DNA of 64,000 nucleotides from Marsupella aquatica (Eukaryota; Plantae; Marchantiophyta), in assembly GCA_973895155.1 (NCBI GenBank), contig OZ316891.1, positions 26,839,972-26,903,971 on the forward strand. The letters run 5' to 3'. A program made the position numbers and the translations under genes. Below are positions 26,828 through 49,371 of this stretch, one piece after another; the first letter of the stretch is position 1, and every line of letters starts with the position of its first letter. The notes under the pieces are model-generated. The model was given only the letters and a program-made list of their open reading frames with translations, searched no databases and was not told the origin of the DNA.

Positions 26828-27209
26828 AAAGCTGGTGGTTCTAGGTTTTGACATGGACAGTGGCACTTTAAACTAAACATCCACTATTACCTTATTGAGT
26901 ATGTACAATACTTCCTTGCATGGATTATTCAGCCTTAGAATGTCATTTATGGTATTTGTACAATTTGTTGCCCGAGTGACAAAGGCTTGTCTGATCCCAA
27001 CTTTTGGGTGGGTTGGTGTAAAAAGCTTTTGCCCATGGTGAGCTTCAAACCCACAACCTCTGCCTTCCCACTCAGCTCAGTTGCCCTTATGCCCTCAGTC
27101 TGTTGATAAAAAAGAAGGATCCATTTATTTTGATAATGAACATCCTGCCCGGGAAGCATCTGGCAGGCAGGGGGTACAGAGTCATTAATGACTTTCCAGG
27201 GACCCGTAG

Positions 27210-27679
27210 CCCTGAATCATGGATCATGGAGGGAGGACCAGTTGTGGGGATTCTGTACATAAGCTGCCATGGATAGCAATTTTCAATCAGCCACCGCCCT
27301 GAACCCTGAATCATGGATCATGGAGGGAGGACCAGTTGTGGGGATTCTGTACATAAGCTGCCATGGATAGCAATTTTCAATCAGCCACCGCCCTGAACCC
27401 TGAATCATGGATCATGGAGGGAGGACCAGTTGTGGGGATTCTGTACACAAGCTGCCATGGATAGCAATTTTCAATCAGCCACCGCCCTGAACCCTGAATC
27501 ATGGATCATGGAGGGAGGACCAGTTGTGGGGATTCTGTACACAAGCTGCCATGGATAGCAATTTTCAATCAGCCACCGCCCTGAACCCTGAATCATGGAT
27601 CATGGAGGGAGGACCAGTTGTGAGGATTCTGTACATAAGCTGCCATAGATAGCAATTTCCAATCAGCCACCGCCCTGAA
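27210..27679. repeat. 94-bp tandem repeat x5 inside a dispersed repeat that is the MULE insertion target
   Basis: CCCTGAATCATGGATCATGGAGGGAGGACCAGTTGTG...CCACCGCCCTGAA starting 27210, 27304, 27398, 27492, 27586; near-identical. Confidence 0.92.
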
Positions 27680-27813
27680 CGGAAGCCAAGTATTGCTCCA
27701 AAGTGTCCCAAGATCAGGGCACCAATTGAGACTTAGTCTAGCCCACTTGGATGTGGCTTTGTGTGTCCTTCCTGGCTTGCCCTTGAGGTTTCCAAAGGTG
27801 TGAGGTGCTGGTG

Positions 27814-27896
27814 GAGTTATATGCTTGATGGGCCCTCTACGGAACCTTTCTTACCTGATGGGCCCCTTGGAACTTTTTTTACCCAATAGGCCCCCT
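27814..27896 (+). repeat. Left TIR of MULE (three internal TGATGGGCCC-type subrepeats)
   Basis: GAGTTATATGCTTGATGGGCCCTCTACGGAACCTTTCTTACCTGATGGGCCCCT...; reverse complement of 42386-42469. Confidence 0.93.
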
Positions 27897-28536
27897 GTCA
27901 GTATTTTTCGTCAGAAGTTCTTATCATGGGCACTATAACGGGATTTTCCGCCTTGCAGTGACCAACCACGTTTTTAAAAAAGACTATGGTCAACCATGAC
28001 TCCAGGCAAACTGCACAGTCAGACCGTGCGGTCCCTGCATGGTCGATCGACAAACCACGGAAATTATCCGGGACAAACCGCGAAAAGCCGCCGCTGCCAA
28101 AACTGCGATGTGAAGACAATATTCATTATGTCTTCGGATTCGCAATTTTACCAATGGCTGGGTAGTCATGACGTTTGCTTGTATGGGTTTTTTGCTGAGT
28201 CAACATCCTGCAGGAGAAACACGTGAAACCGCGGACACGAAGTGGGAGAAACAAAGAAATATGTGGGAGAAACACGTGAAACCGGGGACATGAAGTGGGA
28301 GAACCACGAAAAGCCGTCGCCGCTGCCCAAGCCGCGACTTGAATACAATATGGATTATGTATTCAAATTGAAATTTTTACCGTATCGCAGGGTCGTCATT
28401 AGGTTTGGTTTTCACACGGTGCACACGGGTTTTTCACGATGTTTTCATGTGCGGCTGACAGCGTAAGTGCGGAGTACCTGCGGAGTACCTCCAAATGTGC
28501 ACAGTGAATATTGAAGTCCAATGATCACAGTCTCCT

Positions 28537-31500
28537 ATGACAATGAACATGTCAGGTGCAGATGAAGAGGATAATGAAGCAGTGCAAGTGCATCTCTGGC
28601 GTAGAGGGGACGTATGCGATGTGGACATCCCGGAAGCTGACAGACCGCCACCTCAAGAGAGTCCATGTTTTGGAAGGAGAAAGAGACCCGCCTCAAACTT
28701 GGCAGCAATTCTGGAAGGGAAGAGTCCTGAGCAAGGTGAGAATTTGGTTTGCTGAAATGTGGGGGTATACTTGTTGTGGGCATTGGGCCTGAATGCCATC
28801 TCACGGCGCACTTGTTATGAAATTAATAGAACCTTGTGCGATGGAGGAAACACCTGATAAATGACTCCAATGCATTTTGGCTCCAATCTACAAGCTTTTG
28901 TTATCTTCCATGAAGATCTGTCTTCCTTGTCATTCAATTGTCAATATGGATCAATATTTATTTAAACTCATGGAATGCTTCTCTGGACTGTTTCTCTGGA
29001 CTGTGGATTCAATTGATTTGGTCTTCTATTGCTGCCTAGTACCTATATTGCCTGTATCGCAAAAGAATTGGCTTCCTGGATTGGAGAAGCATTTTTAGAC
29101 AGAAATCATTATGTCTTCACATAATTTCGTGTCCAGATTATCGTTTTCCAAGGTGAGAATTTGGTTTGCTGAAATGTGGGGGTGCACTTGTTGTTTACTA
29201 TGCCTGAATGCCATCGCCGCACTTGTTATGAAATTAGCAACCTGGATTGGAGAAGCATTTTTAGACACAAATCATTATGTCTTCAAATTATTTCGTGTCC
29301 AGATTATCGTTTTCCTTGAATGAACTATCCTTGAGTGAGTGTATTGAACTAATTGTACCTCTATTGTTTCTGGACTTTGGAAGCATTAGCCTGATTTCAT
29401 TTCATCTTCTATCCCTACACAATAATGGATTTATAGATATGTCCCCAAATAAGTCATAAGGTGTAGTGTCTGTGGACTGTAGAAGTATGTGTAGACGTTA
29501 ATAATGTTGTCTTCACACTGTATGTACAACATCGCTTGCAGTGGAAGCAGAGGCAGCCAGAATTCGCTTGGGCGAGCGATTCAGTGATTTTGAACAGTTT
29601 GGCCGTTGCTTAGATTCATGGGCTATCATGAATGGCCGTGTGGTTTCCAGATATAAAAGTAAAGGAAGCTTTCGAACTAGAGTGTGTCGATTTAGCAATC
29701 CTGTAAGAAAATCTTCCAGGATTCCACCTACTCCAGGAGACTGCAATGGTGGTTTGGTAGCTGAAGATGCTGCTGATGATGATGATGATGATCAAGGTGA
29801 AGGCCAACATGATCGCCAAGATGAAGAGGAAGAGGAATCTGAAGATGAGCTCTTTTGGCACTATGATAGTCGATACGGGGAGTACACTGGCTTCCGTGAC
29901 AAAGGTTCAGGGAAGTCTAAAACTAAGGGTCTTGCTCAGAGTCTAAATCCACATGCACAGTCTATACTCACAGCAGAACAGGTAAGTGCTCACGTGCTTT
30001 CACCAATTCTGGCAACTATCCCTTGTTGCCTTTTCAGTATTTTTGACAATGGGTGTCTTTGGACATTGTGTAGGTGGAAGACATTGAATTTGAGAAGGCT
30101 ATACTATAGATGACAGGATCCCAAAAGCAAGTTCGTGCTCCTCTTGGAGACCTTCATCCAAACAATTTGCTGAGCAAGCAACCGAGAGTCACCGCCACAC
30201 TCCCACCAGCCTTGGGAGTCCTCACAAGCAGACCTACAGCAATCATCAAGCATACTAGTGTTTGGTTGCCTGGCAGGAAATCAGGCAACAAATCAGCAAC
30301 TGGAGCATGTGGGGAGATGTCCAGATTCAGGCCGCCTGAATCTTATGATGAAGAAGGTGTTGATACTTCTTTGTCTTGCCCATTTCGAGTTCGTTGTCAT
30401 CGGCAAGCAGAAACAGGGGCCCATGTGATCACAGTGTGTGATCTCAAACACACTTGTGCAGCGTCAAAACACAAATGGAGAGGCCCAACACAGAAGTTGA
30501 TTTGGTTGGGTGATACCTTGGCTCCAAGAGTAACACGAAATTTGAAAGTGCCAGTGAAAGAATTACTAAATGGCTTCCAGGGGGACTACAAGAAGAGTAC
30601 CACTTACCACCAGATGTGGCGGGCTAAGGACTATATTAAACATATTCACCTTGGTGGACAGGAGGACACGTTCAGAATGATACCGGCACTCATTGCTAGG
30701 TTGAGGGAGGCTGACCCTGCTTGCATTGCAGAGTGGTCTCCTATGGAAGACTCTAACATTTTCTGTAGAGCTTTTATTTGCCCATCGGCTACAAGGAAAG
30801 CTCTCCAATTCGTTCAGCCGTTGATTTCGCTTGATGCCTGTCACACCAAGAACAGAAAGTACCCCACTCAACTCTTCTTGGCAACATGCTTAGATGGCAA
30901 TGCACAGAATTTCATACTTTGTTATGCAGTTGCTCCAGTGGAGAACACTGAGAATTGGATTTGGTTTCTTCAACTAGTTGATAGAGCCCTCTATGGCATT
31001 GAATCCACAATCATGCCAATCATATCAGATCGCCAGAAGGGTCTGGTTGCTGCAGTTAGAGAAGTATGGCCAGGTAAGATCCATGCAGCTTGTGCCAATC
31101 ACTTGAGGGCAAATGTCAAGACCAGGCATGGCAGAACAGCGGCTAATATATTCATTGGTTGCATTTATGCAAACGACATAATTCAGTGAGCATTACATAC
31201 CTTTCCTTTCATTTCTCAATTGCCTGTTGTAAGACATTCAATACACTATATATATACATAATGATGAATGTCTTCACTGCGATTCACAATACATATACAT
31301 AATGATGAATGTCTTCACTGCGATTCACAATACATATACATAATGATGTATGTCTTCTATGTGCCTCTATATGGGTGTGTACTGAATGCTTCAGTACACA
31401 AATGTGCATACATTTAATGATGAATGTCTTCTGTGTGCCTTTGTATGGATGGCTTGTCAATGTTTTTAGTACAGAAGTGTGCATACATAATGATGAATGT

Positions 31501-33020
31501 CTTCTCTTTGCTCAGTACATTAGATGTAGACAAGATTATTTGTCTTCTCTCTACTATTGTAACCGTCTGGTGTCCCCTCTGTGGCGGTATAACAGGTATG
31601 AATCTTCTTTGAGGCGGCTATCCAGTGCCGTACATTCAAGTAAGTCAGATGATGCTGTAAACTACATCAGAACTTTTGATGTTAGACAGTACTCTCGGAT
31701 GGCCTTCCCACTTCCACGGATGGGCAAGGTTACAAGTAACCCTTGTGAGCAAGCTAATTCAGGGTTATTGCCATTTCGGGAATTTGCCCTTTTCAAGTTA
31801 TTAGTTCAACTTTGGATTTACATGCAGCAGAAGCTTAAAGACAGGAGAACAACAGCACTTGCTAGACAGGAAGCATTGACAATTCCAGCCCTCATCAGAT
31901 ACAACAACAACTTGAAAACTTTTGGTCAATGGCAGGTAAACATTTCAAATCTGACTTTCAAATCTGACTTGTACTAGTGTGGTAAGGTTCAATGTCTCGA
32001 TCTCAATGTCTGGTGACATTCAGTAATCAAACAATTGACATGGGCAGGTGTTTGATGATGGACAATCCACTGCAAAAGTACAAACAACATCCGGCAGTGA
32101 AGAGTATCTTGTGTCCCTAGCACCCAAGAAATCTTGCTCATGTTTTGAACTACAAGAAATGGTGTGGCCATGTGAGCACATCATGGCATGGGATGACCAG
32201 GAAGGGCGGAACCCATCTGCACATTTTCATAGGTGTTGGCGAACAGGTTCATTGCTTGCTTTGTATGATGAGGTCATGCCTAGCTTTGTTGTAAGTGACC
32301 TTCAGTTGAGTCCTAATTGTGCCCCTCCAGAGGTTGCTATGAAAAGGGGTCGTCATAGGATAGTTCGATTCCAGCAAGGTGATCGAGGTACAAGGCATGG
32401 ACCCAGGGCTATTAGAGAAGGAGAAGATGTGGTTTACAACACCTCAGGAGAACGTTTCTTGAGGTACCCAGTGTTTGATGACCCCAACAGGGTGGAACCA
32501 TTTTCCCGGTGCAAACACTTATGCTGGACTTCCAGGGATTCAAATTCAGCCACGTAAGAAGAAGCTGCGCCAGTATATCGGCAAGTGTAGGTGCTCCAAT
32601 TGTGGAGAAGCTGGACACAACAGAAGGACTTGTCCCAAAATTGCAGAGGTACAGGATTCCTCAATAAACCACTAAGTTCATTGTTGAGTTTATTACTGAT
32701 TGTGCGGGTGGGTAATGCTTCGCTTTTGTTACCATTTCATTGTGCAGGTGGATAATGCTGGTTCACATACATATCATACTCAGTGGTCACCTCTTCCAGG
32801 AGAAGACCTGGTGGCAACTGAATATTTTATTCCTTCTACAGCACCAAGCACAGGCATTGGTCCAGACAGCACAATTGCAACAAGACATGATGATCCTTTT
32901 CACTCTTACAATGGACCCCCTGAAAACATGCAACGATACTTAGAGTTGGCAGAGGAGGTTGCCATGGAGTGCCGAGGCTTTGGATCACAGTATCAGGAAG
33001 ATATCACTTCATTTGACTAG
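28537..33020 (+). pseudogene. MuDR/MULE transposase (mudrA-like), 6 exons, ~987 codons, disrupted by one in-frame TAG and one +1 frameshift
   Basis: Exons 28537-28735, 29542-29981, 30074-31185, 31596-31935, 32048-32648, 32748-33020. MuDR N-terminal DBD-like (LGERFSDFEQFGRCLDSWAI); DDE residues SLDACHT, IISDRQKGL, SNPCEQANS; CANH motif; SWIM finger CSC...WPCEH; zinc knuckle CSNCGEAGHNRRTC. TAG at 30107-30109; frameshift at ~32501-32504. Confidence 0.88.
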
Positions 33021-33139
33021 TACTTCATTTGACTAACTGTACTTCATGATATGGAACAAACAACTGCTTTGGTTGTGCCCTCAAGAATAGTTAACATAGA
33101 GCTAACTGGCATTTCAGTGTTCGTGTGATCGCATTTTTT

Positions 33140-33316
33140 GAAGACATTTTTCATGTTGTCTTCAGTGTTCAAAAAATGATCTTGTTATTTGAAGACATTT
33201 TTCATGTTGTCTTTAGTGTTCAAAAAATGAATGAGTTACTTGAAGACATATTTCATGTTGTCTTCAGTGTTCAAAACATGATCGAGTTACTTGAAGACAT
33301 TTTTCATGTTGTCTTC
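33140..33316. repeat. 51-bp tandem repeat x4, each unit carrying GAAGAC-N12-GTCTTY
   Basis: GAAGAC at 33140, 33191, 33242, 33293, each followed 12 nt later by GTCTTC/GTCTTT. Confidence 0.9.
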
Positions 33317-33651
33317 ACGTGCACTTTTGGATCCTATGTCGACGGTGCGATATTAGGGTGACCGTTGCGGGGTTTAGGGCGTCCTTAAACCGTCCCCCTG
33401 AGGTAAACCTGTTTCAAGCGCGACGTAGCATGCAGCGTAGCCCATTTGCAACGTCGTGCAAGCGGGAGAGGGGAGCAGAGAGCAGACCATTGAGCAACTT
33501 CAGAGGATAGCAGAGAGTAGTCGATTGAGCACACTTCGGAACAATGGCAAAGGCGAATGCTGACTTTTTGGTTTGATTGTTGTGGGCATTGGGCTTTGGT
33601 GTATGGAACATCTTGGCAATTCTCAGTTACATTTTCTTTGCCATCCATTGT

Positions 33652-34344
33652 ATGCTGGAACGCGCGTGTGCTCTCTTCCCCTATCGAAATGACGATCTAG
33701 GCTGCCTAAGCAGGCTGGCTGTTTGTCGGCCACCTGAATCCAAGTCCCATATTACTTTGGGACCAGTAGATGGGGAGCGTGAAGCAGTTGACAATTCTGG
33801 AGCAGGGACTGTGCGAGCTGATGTTGAGCTCAAATCTGAGGTTGGGGTAGGAAGACTGCAACCTGATGTTGGGCCATTGAAAGTCGATGTTGGCTCCACA
33901 ACAAAAGGCGACAGTCATGTTCAGCTGGAATCTGAGGCTGGTGTAGTGAAAGCTGGACCGTATGGGCGAGTAGAAGGTCTTGTGAGGAGAACGCCTAGAA
34001 GGCTGTCGATTGCTTTGCCTTATAATTGTTATCTAGGCGCGCCCTCTCCAAAGAAATGGTATGGAATTGCAAAGGGCAGGAGTCCTGGGATTTACCGCAC
34101 TTGGGAGGAGGCAGAGGCTCAGGTCACTGGTTTTAGTGGAGCAAATCATAAGTCCTTCAAGTCCCACTCTGAAGCTGAGACATGGCTACAGCGTCAGTTC
34201 AATGCAATGGGGGCACAGTGGAAGGTTCCTAATCTAGCCGATAGGCATAGGGTCAATGTTAAATTGCTTGGAATAGATGAGTCTGGCCATGAAGTGTTCA
34301 AATGTGACTGTTGTGAGGAGATTTTCTGTAGCAATGAACATTAG
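33652..34344 (+). CDS. MULE-borne ORF with RNase H1 N-terminal hybrid-binding / caulimovirus viroplasmin-like domain; no RNase H catalytic domain; Cys-rich C-terminus
   Basis: KKWYGIAKGRSPGIYRTWEEAEAQVTGFSGANHKSFKSHSEAETWL matches the YAVxxGRxPGIYxTWxExxxQVxGFxGAxxKxFxxxxEAxxW signature; ATG 33652 in frame; ends FKCDCCEEIFC. True start and end uncertain. Confidence 0.75.
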   Translation: MLERACALFPYRNDDLGCLSRLAVCRPPESKSHITLGPVDGEREAVDNSGAGTVRADVELKSEVGVGRLQPDVGPLKVDVGSTTKGDSHVQLESEAGVVKAGPYGRVEGLVRRTPRRLSIALPYNCYLGAPSPKKWYGIAKGRSPGIYRTWEEAEAQVTGFSGANHKSFKSHSEAETWLQRQFNAMGAQWKVPNLADRHRVNVKLLGIDESGHEVFKCDCCEEIFCSNEH

Positions 34345-35141
34345 ACCCATACGGGGTAATGGGTATAGCTTACGATTGGCTGAGGTGATGGGTACAATTC
34401 AGGATTCCCTGAGCTCCCACTGTAACTCATTGCAGACTAGGCAGAGGCTAGCAGCAGAAGTAATTGTAGTTTTGCAAATTTTGAAGACTGCATACGCAGA
34501 CGTACTCCACACATTTTGAAATCAGCAATTGAAGCAATTATTGGAATTTGCAATGTTGAGTGCATGGATGTCCATTTCTGTGCAATGTGTATTGAGCTAT
34601 TCTTTGCTGCCTCATGGCATTGTATTCCATTACTATCGGCCTAGGTCTGTTTAGCAGCAAATTGCGCCAAGGTCTACCTCGCGACCGTTCGACCTCCCTG
34701 AACGGGATCTGCAATCGAGTGTCCGCCGCAACAACCCATATATTTTCCTACTTTGGTACGAAGACAAAAACCATATTGTCTTCATGTACATACACCCAAA
34801 GTTGCGTAACAGTGTGGGAACAAAACCAAGTAACTTTGACCCATGCCCCCTGGTAACCATCGTTCTTCTGTCCAAGGAGCATCCAAACACTCAAATTGCC
34901 CCCCTCTTGCAACGGCACAATTTTGGTGGAAGCGTGTAATGAAGACAATAATCATGTTGTGTTCACATGTTTCATTCATTGCATGCTGTATTTTGGACTT
35001 CAAATCACCATTTTTTTCAGGGTAGCCACCATACATACTCAGCATTTTTGTACAAACTTATCAGGATGTTTATGTTGTTAATGGAGATGTTAATGGACCT
35101 GTCACACTTACTCTGGATGCTTATGCTCTTAGAGTTTTTTA

Positions 35142-35454
35142 CTAACTTGTCCCCTAAACTACTACCCAATATTATTAACTTGTTCCTCGGACAAAATTAA
35201 TTATTAACTTAATTGTCCCCCAATTTTCATTTGGGTTAATATTAACTCATATATGGGTTCCCGTAACCAAGTGAGGCCGATGAAGAGGTGCCCTGATGGG
35301 CTCATACGTACGATCCAATAACAACTTGCCAGATGGTAATGGGAACCCATATACATTTTAATATTGATACAAATACAAAATGGAGGACATGTTGATAAAA
35401 AAATTTGTTTTGGGGGCACCTTAGCAATATTAGGTAATTTGGGGGACAGGTTAG
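35142..35454. mobile_element. Nested MITE with TA target duplication (Tc1/mariner-type)
   Basis: TA|CTAACTTGTCCCCTAAA... and ...TTTGGGGGACAGGTTAG|TA; imperfect TIR extends ~55 bp. Confidence 0.65.
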
Positions 35455-35730
35455 TAGGGTTTAGGGGTTTAGAGTTTAGGGCCCTTAATGATCTTGGTAC
35501 ATATATATGCTCAATTGACAAAACTAGGCCTTACTTTGGAGTTTTGTAGCACTGAGGGTGTTATACCAATTTTTAGGTACCCCATTTATTCACAACATAT
35601 TTTGCAAAAGAAAAGGAAGAGGTAGGAGGGGGATCAATTTTGTCAATCTCTTGACCCACTTCAAGTCAAACATCCATACATATTCTCTATTCTTGGGTGT
35701 AATTGAAGCCCTACTTTTTGAACAAATGTA

Positions 35731-35997
35731 TAGGGTTTAGGGTGTATAGCCTACTAGTAGCCTCAAAGAGGGTTTAGGGTGTATAGGCTACTAGGAGTTG
35801 GCAGAGGGTTTAGGGTAGGCCTTCTTTCATTACTTCTAGGCCAGAGGCATAACTCACTAAATGGCCTCATTTGAACAATGGAGATATAGGATGAGTTTTA
35901 TGGGGTTGTTATTCTTGCCTCACCTTATACAATACAAAAGGTCGGAGGAAACTTAGGGTTTAGGGTTTAGGTTTAGGTTTAGGGTTTAGGTTTAGGG
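35731..35997 (+). repeat. Interstitial plant telomere-like repeats (TTTAGGG/TTTAGG) inside the MULE
   Basis: Seven consecutive TTTAGG(G)-type units at 35953-35997; GGGTTTAGGG at ~35733, ~35770, ~35806; more at 35457-35481. Confidence 0.8.
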
Positions 35998-37355
35998 CAT
36001 AATGGTTTACTTAAACTTGTATTTGGGTAAATTTGATAAAGCAAGAATAAATCAAATAAAGGTTAAACTCATACAAGTTCATGCTTTTATGTACACACCT
36101 CCTCTACAGTAAGGAATCATCTCACGACACAAACACACCTGGCCTCATACGTGACCATTGAATTGAAGCAAAAATTAATATTGTCCATCTATGCGGATTT
36201 CATCCATGGTCCCTGCTGCCTCCCAGAACCCCAAGCATGCCGGGGCCAAAGACCCAACATTAATGTGACATATGTAAGAGCCTTCTTACTAATATTGTGC
36301 CAAATGTTCTTTCTTGCTGTGCCTAATGTTCTTCCTTTGCAAGGATGCCACATAACATGAGGGGGTCTAACACAAGGAAAACTATATGTGAAGACATTAT
36401 TAATGTTGTGTTCACATAATTAGCCCTACATATATTTGAGTCTGAATGAAACCCAATTCAGATTATTTGTAATAGTGAGTGAAGACAAAATTAATGGTGT
36501 CTACAAATTTGCCCAAGTCTGCCTACAACCCACACCCCCTTCATCTGGCCGTCCGCACCCGGTCATTTAAATTATGTGTAAGAGTTAGGGAAGACAGCAT
36601 ACATGTTGTCTTCCTTTTTCCAAAGTGTGTAATTAGGAACCCGGGTACCCTTCTTCTGGCTGTCCGCCCCCACCCGGTCTTTCACATTATTTGTAAGTGG
36701 AATGAAGACAAGATCATGGAGTCTACAGGTTTGCCCCGAAAGTTTCCAAGTGTCCTCTTTTTTTGGCCATTTGTGAGTGCGGAAGACAAGATGCGTGTCG
36801 TCTTTTGCATTCTAAACTTCACAGAAGCAGACTGGAATGATCATGTTATAATAGTAAGGAACTCCACTTTGTGACCAGGTTGAACGGAGTTGGCCCCTGC
36901 TTACCATTTGAACGAGACTACCTACTTTAGCATGCATTGTATCCAAACACACATGAGGTGTCATTGGTAATCAATTATGGACAATAATTTCATAATGAAC
37001 ACAACCTTGTAGGTGAAAATTTACTTAAGGAAATGTCTGTACAAGTTATGAGGACCCATTATATGACTACCACTGTTGGGAGCTCATGAAGTACCCATGA
37101 CGCTACCACTGAAAATGGGGAAGGGTGTGGAAGTCAACTGGTAAATTGGGAAGGGTGCAGCAGCTGGTTGATACTCTGCCTGAAAGTATCCTGAGAAGAA
37201 GTGACTTGGGAGTCAATCTGAAGTATTTTTGAAAGCATAAACGTGTCTAAAGTGTAACCATCATCTATTGGAATATCATCCAAGGGACTCGTGACATGAG
37301 ATGGTCCCCCTCTTCCTCGGCCCCTCCCTCTACTTGCCACGCTCTTATGCCGCTT

Positions 37356-40300
37356 CTACTTTTGTATGACACTGTCTTGCACTGCTAGGTCATCATCTTC
37401 AGGGTTCAGAAACACAACATTGGTAGTCGGATCAACTGCGAGTAGAGGAACTATCTTAATAGCCTGACCCTGGTGCGATTTTGAGACCGGTTTCCTCTTC
37501 TTAGAGGCTTGAACAGGTCCTAAGGCCAGTGTAGTTTCTCTCTGTAGTCCATACAATCCAAACAAACATCAGAAGATGTTGCAAACTCTATATTGACATT
37601 ACAAAACTTAAGGCGTTTGACCAGCAAAACATTGATGATAGAAATGTGGCATACCTGGGAGCCCATTGGTGCAGGTGCTGGTGTAGGGGCAGGTGGTGGA
37701 GTAGCTGTAGGGAGCTCATGCACTGATACCCCGGATACCCTTTCTCTTCCCCTTGCCCTGCCTCCCTACAATCCAAACAAACATGCAAAGGCAGTGGAGG
37801 TTAACGTCCTGAACCTGCAAAGCGAAACCACGAATAGAGCAAGGGAATTGGGGGCAGATCCATTCCAGACCTTGGAGGGGTTGGTTGGCGCTGCAGGGGG
37901 CGGTGCTGCTGCTGCTGCTCTGCTCTCCAACAATGCCCCCCTCCTTATTCGTCCCTACACAAAAAAAGATCTAATGTGAACAGGAAGACATCGTGGTTAT
38001 CGTCTCCAACCTGCAGAGCAATTCAAGACGCGTATACAGCAAGGGAATTGGGGGCAGATCCAATCCAGACCTTGGAGGGGTTGGTTGGTGCTGCAGGGGG
38101 CGGTGCTGCTGCTGCTGCTCTGCTCTCCAACAATGCCCCCCTCCTTATTTGTCCCTACACAAAAAAAGATCTAATGTGAACAGGAAGACATCATGGTTAT
38201 CGTCTCCAACCTGCAGAGCAATTCAAGATGCGTATACAGCAAGGGAATTGGGGGCAGATCCAATCCAGACCTTGGAGGGGTTGGTTGGCGCTGCAGGGGG
38301 CGGTGCTGCTGCTGCTGCTGCTGCTATGCTCTCCAACAATGCCCCCCTCCTTCGTCGCTACAAGAAAAAAATGAATGGTGACTTGAAAGACATCATGGTT
38401 CTCATCTCCAACCTGCAAAGCAATTCAAGACACGGAAACAGCAAGGGAATTGGGGGCAGATCCAATCCAGACCTTGGAGGGGTTGGTTGGCACTGCAGGG
38501 GGCGGTGCTGCTGCTAGTGCTGGGATCTCAAGGGATGCCCCCCTCCTTCGTCGCTACAAGAAAAAAAATGAATGGTGACTTGAAAGACATCATGGTTCTT
38601 GTCTCCAACCTGCAAAGCAATTCAAGACACGGAAACAACAAGGGAATTGGGGGCAGATCTATTCCAGACCTTGGAGGGCTTCGTTGGCACTACACAGTAG
38701 ACCTGGAGTTCTGCTGGTGCTGGACTGTCTGGGATGTCCAGGGATACACCCATTCCTCCCTACAATGAAACAAATGCACAACAAACTTAAAAGACAAGAA
38801 GGATCACGTCTTCAACGTGCAAAGCAATTCTAGATATAGGCTAACCAAAGTAATTGGGGCCCAAAGAGGTCAGAAAATGAGTTCCATACGTCGGTGGGAG
38901 GCTCCAACACATGTGCATTCTGTTGAAAGCTGAGGGGGATCTCTGGATGGATAGGAACTTGAAATGCCTCTTCACATAGACAGTCCTCAATAGGAGCTGG
39001 TACCTCCTCTATCCCTTGGGCTTCTTGCTGTGGTTGGTCCTCTGGTGTGTTTTCTGGTACCTCCTCCTCCCCTTGGGCTTCTTGTTGTGGTTGGTCCTCT
39101 GGTGTGTTCTCTGGTACCTCCTCCTCCCCTATCTCTTTTTGCTGTGGTTGTTCCTCTGGTGTGTTCTCTGGTACCTCCTCCTCCCCTATCTCTTCTTGCT
39201 GTGGTTGTTCCTCTGGTGGGTTCTCTGCTACCTCGTCCTCCCCTTGGGCTTCTTGCTGTGCTTGGACCTCTGCTGGCTCGTCATCCCCATGAACTGATTC
39301 ATGAGGTCCATCCTCTTCATCCCCTGCCATTGTTTCTTCCGGGTCTTCCGCTGCTGCACCAGTTATAGCAGGTTCCTGTGGTTCTTCCTTGGGTCCCTCT
39401 TCATCACTTTCCTCACATAGCAAACCCCACTTTGCAGGGCCAATCTCATAATCACTCTCATCAGAGGTGTCCTGCCACACCTCTGAGACTCCAGCCTACA
39501 CAATAACACAGCACTATGAATCTCACATGGCACAGGCATACATTACAAAACAAATAATTCATGGAGCCTAGACTTACCGCCTCCCGAGCACTTCGAACTG
39601 TCATGCCCCTCCTCTTGTATTCTTGGATGAGATTTGTAGTAGACTTTGCAAGCGTTGTGGGCTTCTGGTCTCGCTTCCATTCCCTGTAGTCAGCAGCAGT
39701 AGCTTCGAAATCTACTAGCTTGGGCGCAATCTTCCACTTCAGCAGTGCCCTTTTCTGCTTCAAGTATTCCACTGCCTGACCAATGAGGTTCTCCCAAACC
39801 TCCTCAATGTGCAGAAGATGGGGAGGTTGCACCTCCACATGTAGCTGAGGGAAACAACATTGTAGCATGGCACTGTCCATTTTTAAAGCTACCAGTTTTT
39901 TATCCCTTGGCAGCACAATGGGCATCTGTTTGATAAGCTCAATCCATCCAAACACAATAGGAGAAGTGCCAGCAGACTCCGGAAATTCCAACAACATCTC
40001 AAACATAGAATCATCTAGCAAACAGGACCAACCCTGGTTGCACATGGGATGAATGTGTGCAGCTTTGATAACCCAAACGAGAAGCGTTTTTGTTGGGACA
40101 GTGGGCTCCTCTCCAACAACCAGATATTTCTTCTTCAGCATAGCTTTCCTCCTAGACTTGGATTGCTTCCATCGCAGCTGAACGGTAGACCTCAGGCGCG
40201 TCCATGTTGCTTCATTAGGCTCCTTCACAGCAGCAATCCGACCCGACTTGCGGTTCTTGTCTACACGAGCTGAGAGTTCAAATCTTGAAGCCAACCAAGG

Positions 40301-40504
40301 CAGGCCCGGCTCCAACAGTGCAGCTGGCAACTGCAGGTTGTGGGCAATATACATATGGGTCTGGAATGCCTTGAAAGATGGATGGGAGCGGGGCTTATGG
40401 GTCCCAACTATGCAAAACCAGTTGTGTTTGCCCTTGCCATCAACATGGTGACGGAAGTGGACATCTTCCTTGGCTATGGAGTAATTAGTGCCCTGTGGCG
40501 CCAT
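37356..40504 (-). CDS. MULE accessory gene of unknown function, convergent with the transposase, 9 predicted exons, ~751 aa (possibly ~825 aa originally, to 37134)
   Basis: Exons (minus) 40504-39578, 39495-38890, 38759-38670, 38553-38473, 38357-38271, 38154-38071, 37954-37871, 37765-37655, 37541-37356; all introns GT-AG and phase 0. Contains a His/Cys-rich N-terminus, a basic segment, acidic 19-aa repeats, R/A/P-rich repeats and a KKRK NLS-like motif. The frame continues past the TAG into RGRGRGRGG until 37134. Confidence 0.72.
37838..38690. repeat. ~200-bp tandem repeat x4-5 whose unit is one exon plus one intron of the accessory gene
   Basis: AAGGGAATTGGGGGCAGATC recurs at ~200-bp spacing; on the minus strand each unit has TGTAG|exon...CCAAG|GTCTGG. 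Confidence 0.88.
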
Positions 40505-42385
40505 AGCAACTATGAAGACTACAAAGCAGCCTTGGTTGGGCTCAAGATCTCACCCAACCCTCGTCTGTGCTCTTCAATTGCCACTCCACACCTAGAATGA
40601 CACGCAGGAAATTAAAAAGACATACCAACATACACAGGAAATATAGCAGCATCAAAAGCTCCAAATAAAACTTCACCCTACACAAAGAGTGACCTAGGAG
40701 ATGACGATAATCACACGGAACAGGGGAAGAAACCAGGCGTCAAGTTTTATTTTCCAGGTGCGCACTTCTTAGAGTATGATAATTGAGAGTCCCGATTCCC
40801 GCACGGGAGGTGAAGTGAACTACAGAAGCCATGAACTACAGAAGTTGTCATTGCAAAAATTTGGTTTGCATCAAACTGGGGGCAGATCATGGAATGTTTG
40901 CAATGCCTGTGCATAGAGAGTGCTTGTAAAACTAAGAATTCTCTGCCAACAATTGACTAATGATTAAACCAAATCTAGTAGCAAACAAAATGAGACAGTG
41001 CGAGTAGAACTAAGATTTATTTTAGAGAGCTTTAGAAAATGCTTTGACCTAGTTGCAAACAACTTGAAGGAGACAGACGAAGATTCAAGAACTTTTACAA
41101 AATCATTCAACCTGGGGGACTGTCGTTGCAAACGAATTGACGGGTTGAAAGAGCACTTTTAAAGACTGAGTGAGAGAAAAAGAGAGAACAACGAGAAGCA
41201 ACTATCATGCACCAACACTACAGCAAGAGGTAACGCAAATTTCCGGCCTCTCGATGGCCGCCTAAGATCAATGTAACAGTCTAGTTCTTCCTCACCCGCC
41301 TCTCTTCCAAAACCCTCTTTTGTCTCCCACCAACAAACACTATCGATCTCTCTACGGGAAATTAGTTCATTCTCGTCTGCTACGTCTTTCGACTATTCTT
41401 CAACTACCAAAAATAAAGCAATGCAAGCCAAACTTAAGTATAGGAGAACGTCCAACCTTCAGCCTGCCTACCTCGTTGCTTCAAAGCAAAACGCCCTTGA
41501 ATCTCTCGCGCATTGATGAATCCTATACGGGACCCCTGGGAGTTGGAATGGTTGCAACCTCACAGAGTCACAGGGTCACATTTGGCTCTCGCGAAACCTC
41601 AAACCTCAAAGAGCGGTTCTGACAGCTCGCTGCGGTTCTTTGCCATAGCACTGAGGGGGTCAAACAGCAATGCAAGTTTGCGCAAATAATTTATAGAGGC
41701 CAATCTATAGTCATCACCAGTGAAAACGGGGCTACATTCATTTTTGGTACTCTGAAATGATAATGTTTGGACCATCGGCAATCAGATTGACTCAATGCAA
41801 CAAGACAAAACTTACAGACACATTGGGTAGCCAGTTTGAGTGGTGGGGAACGTCGTCCAGGTGGGGAACGTCGCATTTAGTGGCTGCTGCTCTACAATCA
41901 AATTGGACCCTGCGCTTTGCTTATGCCCATGCTCCCAACAAAAAATGCAACGTGCTGCAACAGTCTTCTCCTACCGAACCCGACCATCAACAAACCCGAT
42001 CATCAACAAGCAACAACATCCACAAAAGTCGAGCATCGATTGAACCCGAGCACCCGCCCGAGCATGGCCAGCAGATCAACAAAACCCGAGAGCTTCTCTT
42101 CTCTCCAAACAACATAGACCGACGATTGTCGGGGTTTAGCGGTAGGGAACCCTAAACCCCCCAAAACAACCGAATACATAATATAATATGTATTCAAATG
42201 TAAACCCGCCCACACCGTATTTACAACCGTGGTGTTGACTGCATTGGACACTCAGTTGGGATCACGGTAACTACGGCGCGGACCACGGAGGACTGGACGT
42301 GACCACGCAGTGTACAACGTTAAGTTACGTTGCGGTAAACTGCAGAGTTTGGCCCTCACAAGAACAGTGAGTACAAATCATTAAG

Positions 42386-42469
42386 AGGGGGCCCATCAGG
42401 TAAAAAAAGTTCCCCAGGGGCCCATCAGGTAAGAAAGGTTCCGTAGAGGGCCCATCAAGCATATACCTC
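42386..42469 (-). repeat. Right TIR of MULE
   Basis: ...AGGGGGCCCATCAGGTAAAAAAAGTTCCCCAGGGGCCCATCAGGTAAGAAAGGTTCCGTAGAGGGCCCATCAAGCATATACCTC followed by the TSD. Confidence 0.93.
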
Positions 42470-44579
42470 GGTGCTGGTGTCAAGAAAGGATTCCCAATCA
42501 AAAACTATAATACATTCTTGTGCCCTTTTTTTGTGGTTGTCATTCAAATTTCATGGTTTTAGTGCCCAAAAAAGGAAAAAAGTTCGTCAAAAGAGAAGAA
42601 TAAAGCAAAAGTGTGAACTTAATTTAGCGTGAATGAAAGGGTAAGGAGAGTCATTAATGTCTTTCCAGGACCCCTAGCCCTGAATCATGGATCTTGGAAT
42701 GGATCATGGATAGAGGATCTTCCTCGATTCTTGAGCATTGTGTTGCTGTCATTATTATGGGTCTAATTATTATGGGTCTAGTTACGGGTCTAGTTAGAGA
42801 CTCTTGTAAATCTAAAAATTCTGTGAAAAATCCACTTCATCCCAAAAATTCTAAACCATTGGATCTGTATAATTGGACCATCTAGATTGATTTCATGTGC
42901 GAGCACTTGTGCAAACACTTGTGTGGAACAAAAGTGAAAATTGATTCTCAGTCATTGGATGTTTCTAATTGGAGCATCTAGATTTCTTGCATGTGGGAAT
43001 AGTTGTATCCATAATGGTGTGGAACAAAAATGAGAACTGGTATCAGATTCCATTCGAATGTCATACCAAAATAGATGCATGTCAATTTCTCATCATTCTT
43101 CTCAACCAAGCCATGCCAAAATGAATGAGTGTACATGTCCAATTAACTTACCCCCCATTCCATGCCTCCACATCTATTTTACATCAACTCATCATCAAAC
43201 ACTATAATACACTATCCACCCAAAAAGTATTGTAGTCTTTTACAAAATAATGAGGAAAATTTGAGAGTCAATCAGACCTGGTCTTTCATCAAAAATTGAA
43301 TTTTTTTGGTACCATCAGATCCACCTAGACACTCCTCCCACCTCAAATGTCTATCCAATGCCTGCCCACATCTGCCCAAAATGGAAATTAAATAAAATTT
43401 GGAAATATGAATATGTAAACTTTTATTAAAATATGTATACAGAGTAACTTAAAAAATAATATATTTAAAATACACTCCCCCATATTGTGCAACCATGCTT
43501 GGACACCCATCACATGTGCCCATGCACTAACCTTCACCCTCCCCAACAACAACACTTTCACAACAACAACCTTGGGGGACTCATGCCAAGGGGGGTCTCA
43601 CATCACATGGAAAGTTTTGGAGGAATAACACCTTAAAATATAAGTAAAAGTATTTATCACATTTTTGCAACCCTTACCTTTTAGTATAATCTTGGAATGT
43701 TCCCCATTCAGTTTTTTAATTTTAATTTTTTAAGGCAAAATCTATGAAACCCCATAGAAAAAGAACATGCAGTCACAACATTTGAACCCAAGATTTATCA
43801 GTCTTTACTCAAGTGAGCTATTACACAACCATGCTTCTCTGGGCCAAAAACCATTATTTTAACTCTTATAACTTTCAAAACTTGATTGAAACACCTCTAA
43901 TGCTCTTCCACAATAATTTATAGGTCTTTCACTAAACCCAATTAAACTGTGGACCCCCATGTTCATCCAAGGAATGTGTGTATGATGAAGTGAAATCAAT
44001 TTTCAGCAAGGCGGTAACCAATGGTTTTGAGTCTCCCGATGGTATTGGTGTGTGCTCGTACAAAAGAAAATGCTCAAAAGATAGAGGAGATATATCAAAC
44101 GGAAGGTTGAATGTGGAGGATTTGAGTTTTTTGACGGTTTTTGCTTACACATTGGAGAAATCGTGTTTCTACCATTCTTGATTGATCGTTTGTGAGTTAC
44201 ATTGAGCATTACGGCCACAAGACAGACTGGAGGACAATACTCAAAGTCTGTTAGCGAAAAAGCGCTTGTCGAGTTCAGTGGGAAGAACACACAAAACGAA
44301 TGAGCCATCACTTCACACGAAGGATTCGTAGTTTTTTATTTAAGAAAACTATGGTGTGAGGGGGAGACCAAAAATTGTTTCTTTGACATAGAGGTTGCAT
44401 TTGGCATCAACCTGTGTCCAGAGTGAGCTTCAGTTGAAGACTAGAGGGATGCAAACAATTCAAGCCAGGAAGCAAGCATTGTGGACAAGCGATAGTGACA
44501 TAATCAAAGAAATCAATTTGCAGGGGCTAAGTTTGTGATAGTGACGAGATTACAGTGATATCTCTTAATCGAGAAAGGG

Positions 44580-45056: not shown

Positions 45057-46857
45057 CGATTGATTATTTAGTTTTACAATGTAAAGCCAATTCAAAGGGG
45101 TTTTAACTATGTACATTTCTATCGATTGGTTTTTCAAACTTGCAAATAATTAAAAAAAATACAAGCATTTTGATATAAAACACTTATATCTCTTTGACAA
45201 ACATTAGAATGGTAACTTTATTTTACTAAATGACATTTCTTCCTTTGTATTTTGATTTTTTTTACGTTTAATATCTACGGTATGGCGCCCCAAAAATTAC
45301 ATTTCTTTTGCCACGAACAGGAATGTGCACGTTTGTTATTGTTAAAAGTAAGATCATTCTTGTTTGTGGCTGGTTGTGGTGATGTGGTACAACCTCGTGG
45401 CAGAGAATTTGCAAGAGACCTCTCATGGGGGTCCGTAATTAAAAAATCATATACTTATTTATGCATTATGGGCTAAAAGAAATAAGTGAGGACCTTGGGA
45501 CAACAACAATCACATTAATTTTGCAACACCAACAACCCAACCAAAATGAGTAGACTTTTGCACCCATGAAGTATAGCAAACTATCCCATGCTTTTTACTC
45601 TATCGCTCTATCATGGTCGTCTTCCCAAATTTGGCGTCTTACTTGCCAATGAAAGACAGTGAAGCATGGAAGGACAGACCCAACAAAACAGGGAAAATGG
45701 GAGGGGTGATGATCAAGGAGAAAGGGGGAGAAACATGGATGGGAAGACAAGGAGTAAAAAACTCAATCCATGGGAAAAGGAACAACCTCCTTTACACAAT
45801 GATAACTTTTATGCAAGAAATTCTTTTACATACTTACACCTTTTATTCCACAAAATCTTTAGTTTGCATAACAACATACTTTCTGCAATGATATATTTTT
45901 TTCTCTTTGGCACAATGACCTCTTTATAAAATATATCCTTAATATCATCTTTTATGCAACATCATCTTTTGGGTAACGATGTCTTTTACACAATAACATA
46001 TTTTGTATAACAACATCTCTCGTGTAAGGCTTAGATATTGAGCTACTTTTGCATAATGACCAATCACCCAAACCTTCAAATGTGTTTTTAGAGCCCTTAC
46101 TGGCTGATGGTAGGAATTATATAACATTATCAAAAAATAAACTGAGAAATAAACCTCAACTAAGACTTTCCCCTCAAGTGCTTTCAACACTTAATGGTTC
46201 ATCATTGGATCATTCCAAACTAGCCAGAGTTACTTTGCGGGTTACTTTAGTTCGTCAATAGTGAAAAAAAAGTCAAAATATCATGATTTAACACAAATAG
46301 TGACAAAGTATCCAATTCTATCCTTTTGGTGCCCCTCAACCCTACATTTGACCTAGGATGCGGTACACAACAAGGGCACACGAGAATCTGCAAATCAGGT
46401 TGGACTTATCTAGAGTATTTATAGTTAAATTACCTATTTGGACAGGCTATTTCTTGGACTTCTTGAGGCATGGGGGTATGAAAAATTTCAATTATGTGTT
46501 AGTTGGCTTGAAGTAACAACTTATTGGATGCCCTTGTGTGCAACTCTTTAGACCTTTTCTTATGAGGACTCTAACTAAGTGGCTTGCAGGAGTGTGATTC
46601 CCCGTCAACCAAGCAAAACTTGCTTGTGGACTGAAGCTCACTAAGCCAACTTCATCATTTAGATGATTTTTGTGCTGTCTAAATTCATTTCTATTGCAAT
46701 GGATACAAATAGCTGCAAGTTTATCAATTACAGAATAGACATGATGGTCTATTTTGGTGGAATCTTAGTACCAATGAAGGCCAAAGTTCAGAATTAAACA
46801 AATGCAAAGCCAGTCAATGATTAGCTTTCCACATAAGATACATATTGGGGCACAAAT

Positions 46858-47420
46858 GCATTCTAAGCTAATTTGACCTAGGAAAATTAGACCTGAGCTG
46901 ACCTCACCTACGCCAATCTGACCAGAGAAAACCTGGGCTAAGCCAAGTTGGCCTTTGCCAACCTAATCTATCTAAGCCATCTTCAAAATTTAGACCTGTC
47001 CAGCTTTGCGCATTTTTAATTTCATTTCTATTGGCTAAAACAGGTGTGAATTTATTGCCTGATAGTATAGACATAGCCATATACTCTGGTAAAAGATCAG
47101 TGCCACTAGAGCTTGAAGTTGAGAAATAAAAACGTACAAAGGTATATAAAATAGACTCAGAAATAGACAAAGCTAACCAGTGATCAGTTTGCCGCACTAT
47201 ACACAAATGTCTTCTATATAAGGCCGGTGACACCTAAGATGATTTCACCTATGCTGATTTACCTAAGTTGACCTTAAGTTAACCTGACCTAAGCAGATCT
47301 GACCTCAGCCAAAATTTATCTGGTTAGTTTGTCACAAAAGACATGATTAAATGCCTTCTAAGCTGATTTGACCTAGGCAGATCTGACCTGAGCCAAGCTC
47401 ATCTAACGTGATCTGACCTA
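46858..47420. repeat. Degenerate GACCT-periodic (5/15-nt) repeat with ~68-bp direct repeats at both ends
   Basis: TGCATTCTAAGCTAATTTGACCTAGG... (46858) vs TGCCTTCTAAGCTGATTTGACCTAGG... (47352); GACCT/GATCT periodicity. Confidence 0.55.
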
Positions 47421-49007: not shown

Positions 49008-49371
49008 TTTCATTCACCCTAAATTAAGTTCACACTTTTGCTTATTCCTTCTCTTTTCACCAGATTTTTTCCTTTTGGGGGCACTGCAAGTTACCATAAA
49101 ATTTGAATGACAACCACAGAAAAAAAGGGCACAAGAATGTATTATAGTTTTTGATTGGGAATCCTTTCTTGACACTAGCACGACACACCTTTGGGACCCT
49201 TAAGGGCAAGCCAGGAAGGACACACAAAGCCATATCCAAGTGGGCTAGACTAAGTCTCAATTGGTGCCCTGATCTTGGGACACTTTGGAGCAATACTTGG
49301 CTACCGTTCAGGGTGGTAGCTTATTTGAAAATTGCTACGTGTGGCAACTTATGTACAGAATCCCCACCACT
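49008..49371 (-). repeat. Uninterrupted (empty-site) paralog of the repeat into which the MULE inserted
   Basis: Reverse complement aligns continuously with 27620-27813 joined to 42480-42640; carries a single target copy CGTGCTAGTG (plus 49173-49182). Confidence 0.9.

Follow-up and report, generated by a model that had tools for sequence, protein, structure and literature searches.

INTRODUCTION

For DNA transposons, few sequence-specific anti-silencing systems are established. A published account calls VANC dicot specific and MAIN derived (PMC13547354). VANC motifs sit in noncoding tandem repeats, including the introns of VANC itself, and the variable regions of VANC contain tandem peptide motifs (PMC5735166). 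Extra open reading frames (ORFs) known in Mutator-like elements (MULEs) include mudrB, antisense PMD ORFs, and the C2H2 ORF of Spectre, an aphid element; this last example gives accessory finger genes in MULEs a precedent (PMC6446971). Here we describe an accessory gene that lies antisense to the transposase gene inside a MULE of the bryophyte Marsupella aquatica. The window, that is, the whole stretch analyzed, comprises 64,000 nucleotides (nt) of contig OZ316891.1 (GCA_973895155.1; forward strand, 26,839,972-26,903,971), and window coordinates are used throughout. Self-comparison of the window placed the limits of the MULE at 27814-42469 (14,656 bp).

As in VANDAL21 (Hiun), which carries VANC21, and VANDAL6, which carries VANC6, the MULE holds a transposase gene plus two extra genes. 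The accessory protein likewise combines a conserved part with variable tandem peptide repeats (here, 19-amino-acid [aa] repeats and duplicated mini-exons, joined by predicted splicing), and an element-specific short motif has been amplified in tandem in noncoding DNA, including the introns of the accessory gene (PMC5735166). Unlike VANC, the accessory family gives no DUF1985, DUF287, or PMD/MAIN-like Pfam match and has a predicted C2H2-like finger instead, and its motif is a spaced palindrome rather than a directional 8-9-mer (PMC5735166). VANDAL elements possess terminal inverted repeats (TIRs) that are short and degenerate, or none (PMC6446971), whereas the TIRs found here are 84 bp long and 92.9% identical. 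Judged on its sequence, the accessory gene is laid out like VANDAL/VANC, yet it is not a VANC.

Maize MuDR with mudrB and the antisense PMD ORFs of angiosperm MULEs share with this locus a TIR element, a 10-bp target-site duplication (TSD), and an accessory gene antisense to the transposase. They differ from it in that the locus lacks a PMD domain, has internal palindrome arrays, and encodes an RNase H1 hybrid-binding domain (HBD) in a third ORF (PMC6446971). General homolog searches turned up no named MURB-type match; no search was aimed at MURB. TnpA of Spm/CACTA, encoded by a transposable element (TE), activates in a sequence-specific manner and depends on clusters of its cognate motifs; for such a role the protein described here is a candidate only. 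TnpA belongs to another superfamily, is transposase derived, and has its sites clustered at the termini (bioRxiv 10.64898/2026.08.24.746577). In the present element the sites lie internally, and the accessory protein showed no transposase homology. The element is not of the CACTA type: its termini begin with GAG, it has a MULE transposase and a 10-bp TSD, and the motif is absent from the TIRs.

With classical C2H2 fingers (BCL11A, AEBP2, Kaiso, and SWI5) the accessory protein shares the spacing Cys..(Cys/His)..aromatic..hydrophobic..His-x4-His and a predicted strand-strand-helix. It differs from them in having a single finger, usually His as the second ligand, 12 to 14 residues before the first helix His, and an extra N-terminal strand; it has no Pfam zf-C2H2 match, and the matches found lie below significance. 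A literature search by title and start of abstract, with subscription papers largely and supplements wholly outside its coverage, returned no description of the accessory-gene family in a bryophyte. At similarly incomplete coverage, nothing joined Cauli_VI with a transposon or a MULE with a transposon-encoded C2H2 zinc finger in moss, and a term search of the available part of PMC10398659 gave nothing relevant. The protein family is unnamed; the type of arrangement is known.

RESULTS

Exon-intron structure of the accessory gene

The accessory gene is real, and its exon-intron structure is predicted. A preceding sequence-only reading had joined scattered minus-strand ORFs into one frame of nine exons. 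The model was rebuilt with nine exons and eight GT-AG phase 0 introns on the minus strand (40504-37134), as follows.

40504-39578, minus strand: exon 1, 927 nt, 309 aa
39495-38890, minus strand: predicted exon 2, 606 nt, 202 aa, 66 Asp/Glu, four or more 19-aa (57-bp) repeats
38759-38670, minus strand: predicted exon 3, 90 nt, 30 aa, not basic
38553-38473, minus strand: predicted exon 4, 81 nt, 27 aa
38357-38271, minus strand: predicted exon 5, 87 nt, 29 aa
38154-38071, minus strand: predicted exon 6, 84 nt, 28 aa
37954-37871, minus strand: predicted exon 7, 84 nt, 28 aa
37765-37655, minus strand: predicted exon 8, 111 nt, 37 aa
37541-37134, minus strand: predicted exon 9, 408 nt, 136 codons, with KKRK, a TAG at 37358-37356, an RG box, and the stop at 37136-37134
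37655-38759, minus strand: six predicted symmetric mini-exons (81 to 111 nt each) with their introns, a tandem duplication of a 200-bp unit

All nine exon lengths are divisible by 3. The introns (82, 130, 116, 115, 116, 116, 105, and 113 nt for introns 1 to 8) are not in seven of eight cases, and read-through meets stops in six of the eight. The T fraction is 0.36 to 0.43 in introns versus 0.08 to 0.24 in exons. Introns 2 to 7 can be aligned with one another and exons 3 to 8 are related, giving one 200-bp exon-plus-intron unit (4.3 copies by TRF, and alignment). By this evidence, the predicted tail of the accessory protein lengthened as a single symmetric unit of exon plus intron was duplicated in tandem. 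The model passed an internal test, in that duplicated exons differ by multiples of three and duplicated introns by 1, 11, or 14 nt. At the sequence level the nine-exon model holds, but because introns 2 to 7 are copies of one unit, its eight introns amount to only two or three independent ones and not to eight proofs. Two weak points concern introns 3 to 7, whose donors are weak (AAG/GTCTGG) and each of which contains a second acceptor-like site; splicing of the tail is therefore only predicted. A search of sequencing runs listed no RNA run with the gene. Contigs from the listed runs cross the predicted introns without joints; they behave as genomic DNA and are uninformative on splicing.

Most of the composition claimed earlier for the protein was recovered. 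Exon 1 has its 309 aa, the C-x4-H-x13-H-x4-H pattern, and the basic stretch, and exon 9 has KKRK and the RG box. Acidic 19-aa repeats are present in exon 2, but the repeat quoted is a consensus that matches none of the four aligned units exactly. The "five or six basic/Pro-rich mini-exons" correspond to six predicted ones, of which exon 3 is not basic. The predicted tail is acidic (66 Asp/Glu in 202 aa) and then Ala/Pro/Arg rich.

Exon 1 belongs to a conserved protein family

Exon 1 was searched with phmmer against 1.84 billion representatives (expectation value [E] of ≤0.001), which gave 14 matches, 13 of them plausible homologs with 25 to 76% identity; P0013 was dropped as a repetitive chance match. 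One cluster member, P0015, is identical to exon 1 at 242 of 309 residues. Named homologs are limited to two proteins of Calypogeia fissa (CAM6122973.1 and CAM6097530.1; 23 to 26% identity), and most homolog clusters hold one or two members. Conservation of exon 1 among family members, on which the earlier proposal had staked itself, was thus found, at 25 to 78% identity. So was the lack of homology to an ordinary host enzyme: neither Pfam nor fold searches found enzyme homology.

Thirteen relatives were examined, and in 10 of them the alignment reaches the end of exon 1 or stops close to it. In 9 of the 10 (eight clusters), Val is the next residue and similarity stops there, as expected because a phase 0 GT donor that is read through encodes Val. 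The residue after Val is Ser, Cys, or Arg in six of the seven clusters that have a further residue, which fits a G at donor position +5 (from protein only). In P0011, the nearest relative of the annotated Calypogeia model, the Val may be coding. P0001 and P0015 stay in a single frame of the window across most of intron 1 and match a different one beyond it, pointing to a frame-changing indel within the predicted intron. The predicted first donor is thus well supported, and the frame and first-donor position are kept among relatives at 32 to 78% identity.

No Pfam family was found for exon 1 or exon 2. None of the 13 alignment members had a credible Pfam family (E ≤ 1), nor did any of five further queries (E ≤ 10). 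A weak search for longer homologs (701 to 2000 aa) found none among 3,977 candidates, with proteins of 542 to 700 aa covered by one other search. In two metagenome scans aimed at relatives' loci, none of the 65 and none of the 237 pattern matches could be confirmed.

Predicted zinc finger, basic helix, and fold

The putative ligands in exon 1 are C31, H36, H50, and H55. C31, H50, and H55 are invariant in all eight sequences that cover the N terminus; the second ligand is His in six and Cys in two. Exchange of His and Cys at a ligand position is tolerated by metal sites. The predicted zinc site is likely a conserved C2H2-like finger. A basic helix at residues 98 to 126 (W.RLRST..LRW) is also conserved in the family.

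AlphaFold2 modeled the 309 aa with a mean predicted local distance difference test score (pLDDT) of 79 and a predicted template modeling score of 0.49. The predicted layout is an N-terminal strand-strand-helix domain, a disordered linker (73 to 94), the long basic helix (98 to 126), and a helical bundle; strands plus a helix span the ligands in the N-terminal model (pLDDT of 82). All 13 matches of an N-terminal profile to PDB sequences were C2H2 zinc finger proteins (BCL11A, AEBP2, and ZNF410), weakly (E of 0.057 to 6.9). With the N-terminal domain, Foldseek found Kaiso at a probability of 0.57 (root mean square deviation [rmsd], 1.9 to 2.6 over 40 columns; E of ~1). VIA gave its best Z to Arabidopsis Serrate (Z of 3.9, rmsd of 3.5, 53 aligned residues). 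The SWI5 finger was also among the weak fold rows. For the 309-aa model, there was no match at E ≤ 0.001 in PDB or BFVD, and the best VIA Z (7.3) went to generic long helices. The structural check proposed earlier for exon 1 therefore yielded a folded head in AlphaFold2 but no significant match in Foldseek or other fold searches. VANC and MAIN were absent from the fold matches of exon 1; these searches lacked predicted cellular structures, and the absence excludes nothing. In the ESM Atlas, the one lead for exon 1 was a zf-C2H2 plus RVT_3 cluster, at 0.80, and P0015 residues 90 to 309 had no match. A homodimer prediction scored 0.00 with the alignment not used and was counted neither way.

A palindromic motif confined to noncoding DNA of the element

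The GAAGAC-N12-GTCTTC array named in the sequence-only reading is real, confined to the element, and noncoding. Its sites are distributed as follows.

28112-42195, unstranded: dispersed palindrome, 16 cores/24 tolerant sites, all outside predicted coding DNA
33140-33316, unstranded: 51-bp tandem array with four GAAGAC-N12-GTCTTC-type palindromes
37984-38813, unstranded: four AGAC-N12-GTCT sites (37984, 38184, 38583, and 38790) in predicted introns 6, 5, 3, and 2 of the accessory gene, respectively

The core AGAC-N12-GTCT occurs 16 times inside the element and not at all in the remaining 49 kb of the window. Other spacers from 6 to 20 gave zero or one site each inside the element, and 200 dinucleotide shuffles of the element gave a mean of 0.16 and a maximum of 2 sites. 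Flanking sequence sorts the 16 sites into 10 unrelated contexts. A tolerant scan found 28 sites, 24 of them within the element and none of these 24 in the coding intervals (approximate; ~39% of the element), for which the chance is ~0.007 when 10 independent sites are counted. Four degenerate sites lie in a transposase intron. The palindrome has been multiplied within the introns of the accessory gene. The TIRs contain no palindrome half-site and have a different repeat.

The premature stop is private to the window copy

The in-frame TAG that the earlier reading placed before the RG box is present in the window copy, but contigs of all three runs examined, out of four found (X1, X3, and X4; two organisms), have CAG at 37358-37356. 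The TAG is a private lesion of this copy, not a family feature, and it shortens the window copy by 74 residues. In the sister contigs (X1, X3, and X4), the RG box is also extended in frame by an insertion of 6 nt; together with CAG, this indicates that the RG box is part of the family reading frame. The X3 contig has a 3-nt deletion in intron 8. Intron 7 (105 nt) accounts for 7 of the 18 substitutions listed and exon 8 (111 nt) for 1, with differences in the repeat-covered end of that stretch partly hidden by a share filter.

A candidate element-specific regulator and its alternatives

We favor, at about even confidence, the interpretation that the accessory protein is an independently evolved, element-specific DNA-binding regulator, with its splicing, binding, and function all predicted. 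The full anti-silencing version of this interpretation is more tentative. It is equally tentatively that we propose its specific form, in which an unrelated family in bryophyte Mutator elements independently provides VANC-style anti-silencing: a CHHH/C2H2 finger-plus-helical dimer would read a CG-free palindrome, exon-intron duplication would grow sites and tail together, and the protein would be paired with an RNA/DNA-hybrid-binding third gene.

Under the proposed mechanism, the predicted zinc finger and basic helix would bind the element's own GAAGACA-N10-TGTCTTC sites. Since the motif is palindromic, we infer a dimer, which would bind the two half-sites. The tail, acidic and repetitive, would draw in chromatin or transcription factors of the host, so that the element stays expressed and mobile. 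The transposase would act at the TIRs and the second protein at the internal palindromes; the two distinct motif systems, TIR repeat and internal palindrome, suggest two readers, and TIR binding is reported for the MULE transposase of AtMu1 (bioRxiv 10.64898/2026.08.24.746577, section 7). The accessory protein is the best candidate for the second reader because its finger and basic helix are conserved and because its own gene amplified the site. As the window copy has a premature stop, full-length product would be supplied in trans by other copies.

Several observations weigh against this interpretation. The protein and the motif are linked by co-residence in one element only, and a single finger usually reads only 3-4 bp. 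No significant structural match of the exon 1 model to any DNA-binding protein was found, and the best N-terminal fold match by Z, Serrate, is an RNA-processing protein. The annotated Calypogeia homolog P0014 lacks the junction Val and has a shorter tail, so structure varies in distant members. There is no short-range signal of purifying selection, in small samples with several changes private to the window copy: the five exon 1 differences (among 40 of 2,786 rows) are all nonsynonymous, those in exons 8 and 9 comprise three synonymous versus five nonsynonymous or stop changes, and the acidic repeats have three synonymous versus eight nonsynonymous codon differences. The third ORF could be the regulator instead, and the AtMu1 transposase alone can activate cognate copies (bioRxiv 10.64898/2026.08.24.746577). 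Overall, the earlier interpretation survives as a conserved TE-borne gene with a folded head, a predicted C2H2-like finger, a basic helix, and an acidic/low-complexity tail, but it gained no significant DNA-binding fold match.

Two alternatives would give the protein another function. It may be a MURB-like transposition helper that aids integration or target choice via the transposase or chromatin, the palindrome being read by the transposase, the HBD protein, or a host transcription factor. With two facing genes, TIRs, and a 10-bp TSD, the element reproduces the layout of MuDR, in which mudrA and mudrB are convergent. mudrB is "apparently required for integration" (PMC6446971), and transposases are able to regulate themselves (bioRxiv 10.64898/2026.08.24.746577). 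We nevertheless regard a helper as unlikely: the palindrome is not in the TIRs, which carry their own repeat, it is multiplied within the introns of the accessory gene, and the conserved finger and basic helix suggest nucleic acid binding. Such binding might instead be directed at RNA, with the finger and RG box contacting RNA or the small-RNA machinery and protecting element transcripts together with the neighboring HBD ORF, and with the palindrome unrelated. This RNA-level counter-defense would accommodate the Serrate, TUT1, and spliceosomal fingers among the top N-terminal fold rows (all with Z of <4), the RG box, which sister copies retain and extend in frame, and the HBD ORF within the same element. 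It is improbable in our view, as those fold scores lie in the noise range, the sequence profile matches only C2H2 proteins of the DNA-binding type, and the motif is left unexplained.

A captured host gene or decaying cargo, as in Pack-MULEs, would have no role in propagation of the element. The premature stop of the window copy and the missing purifying signal at short range would fit such cargo. Against it, the stop is missing from the contigs of all three runs, relatives at 32 to 78% identity share the frame and the first-donor position, the searches gave neither a named host family nor a Pfam domain, and homolog clusters mostly have one or two members, unlike a conserved host gene. We consider cargo very unlikely.

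An element with defined limits, a candidate regulator unrelated to VANC, and an exact candidate target makes the repeated evolution of such systems directly testable. If the regulator interpretation is true, the protein would add a compact new module for sequence-specific DNA binding or chromatin opening; if it is only a transposition helper, it would still represent a protein family that has no name and whose conserved helical domain has no assigned fold.

The host element and its surroundings

The remaining features of the MULE are as follows.

27804-27813, plus strand: left TSD, 10 bp, GGTGCTGGTG, identical to 42470-42479
27814-27897, plus strand: left TIR, 84 nt, starting with GAG, with repeated TGATGGGCCC units and no AGAC/GTCT half-site
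29505-32680 (approximate limits), plus strand: intron-containing MULE transposase gene (Pfam MULE, E of 1.6e-13; SWIM)
33577-34344, plus strand: third ORF, RNase H1 N-terminal HBD (Pfam Cauli_VI, E of 1e-18; 1qhk, E of 1.9e-8)
42386-42469, minus strand: right TIR, inverted partner of the left TIR with 92.9% identity
42470-42479, plus strand: right TSD, 10 bp, same letters as 27804-27813

The transposase residues D, D, CxxH, and E were located, together with a C-terminal CCHC knuckle. With TIRs, a TSD in the 8-11 bp range, and a DDE transposase with CxxH and SWIM, the element is intact-looking and classed by these features as autonomous type. An empty-site paralog of the target sequence is present, inverted and uninterrupted, at ~49008-49371. 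The insertion target is itself another repeat (27178-27813 and 42470-42698, with the uninterrupted inverted paralog 6.5 kb downstream), which carries a 94-bp tandem array of five copies with 98% matches. CpG depletion is similar in the element (0.45) and its flanks (0.47 to 0.55) and does not set the element apart. The flanking plant genes encode a leucine-rich repeat-malectin kinase, a xylanase-inhibitor-type aspartyl protease, and a Rieske protein.

The TIRs consist of ~29-bp units containing TGATGGGCCC, which are probable transposase sites. In each of the four sequencing runs, contig depth over both ends of the element exceeds that of the interior several-fold, which hints at non-autonomous derivatives. 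Depth is similar over the transposase and accessory genes within each run; depth is not copy number and was not used as support. The HBD ORF ends in a Cys/His-rich segment followed by its stop, and R-loops or double-stranded RNA of the element might be its targets.

Just past the transposase stop, a 106-codon open frame (32700-33020, plus strand) with GT/AG-like sites and no Pfam match is possibly a further exon or a small gene. In the middle of the element lie an imperfect fold-back (35140-35456; 317 bp, 65% self-complementary), a possible hairpin or small-RNA source, and, in noncoding DNA, repeats resembling plant telomeres, GGTTTA(GG), at 35953-35997. Outside the element, the segment 43675-45675 combines degenerate 72- to 80-bp repeats with a contig depth that is very high in every one of the four runs and is probably a high-copy miniature inverted-repeat transposable element or satellite. 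Degenerate repeats with a 15-bp period, resembling pentapeptide-repeat coding sequence, occupy 46854-47418 on the minus strand.

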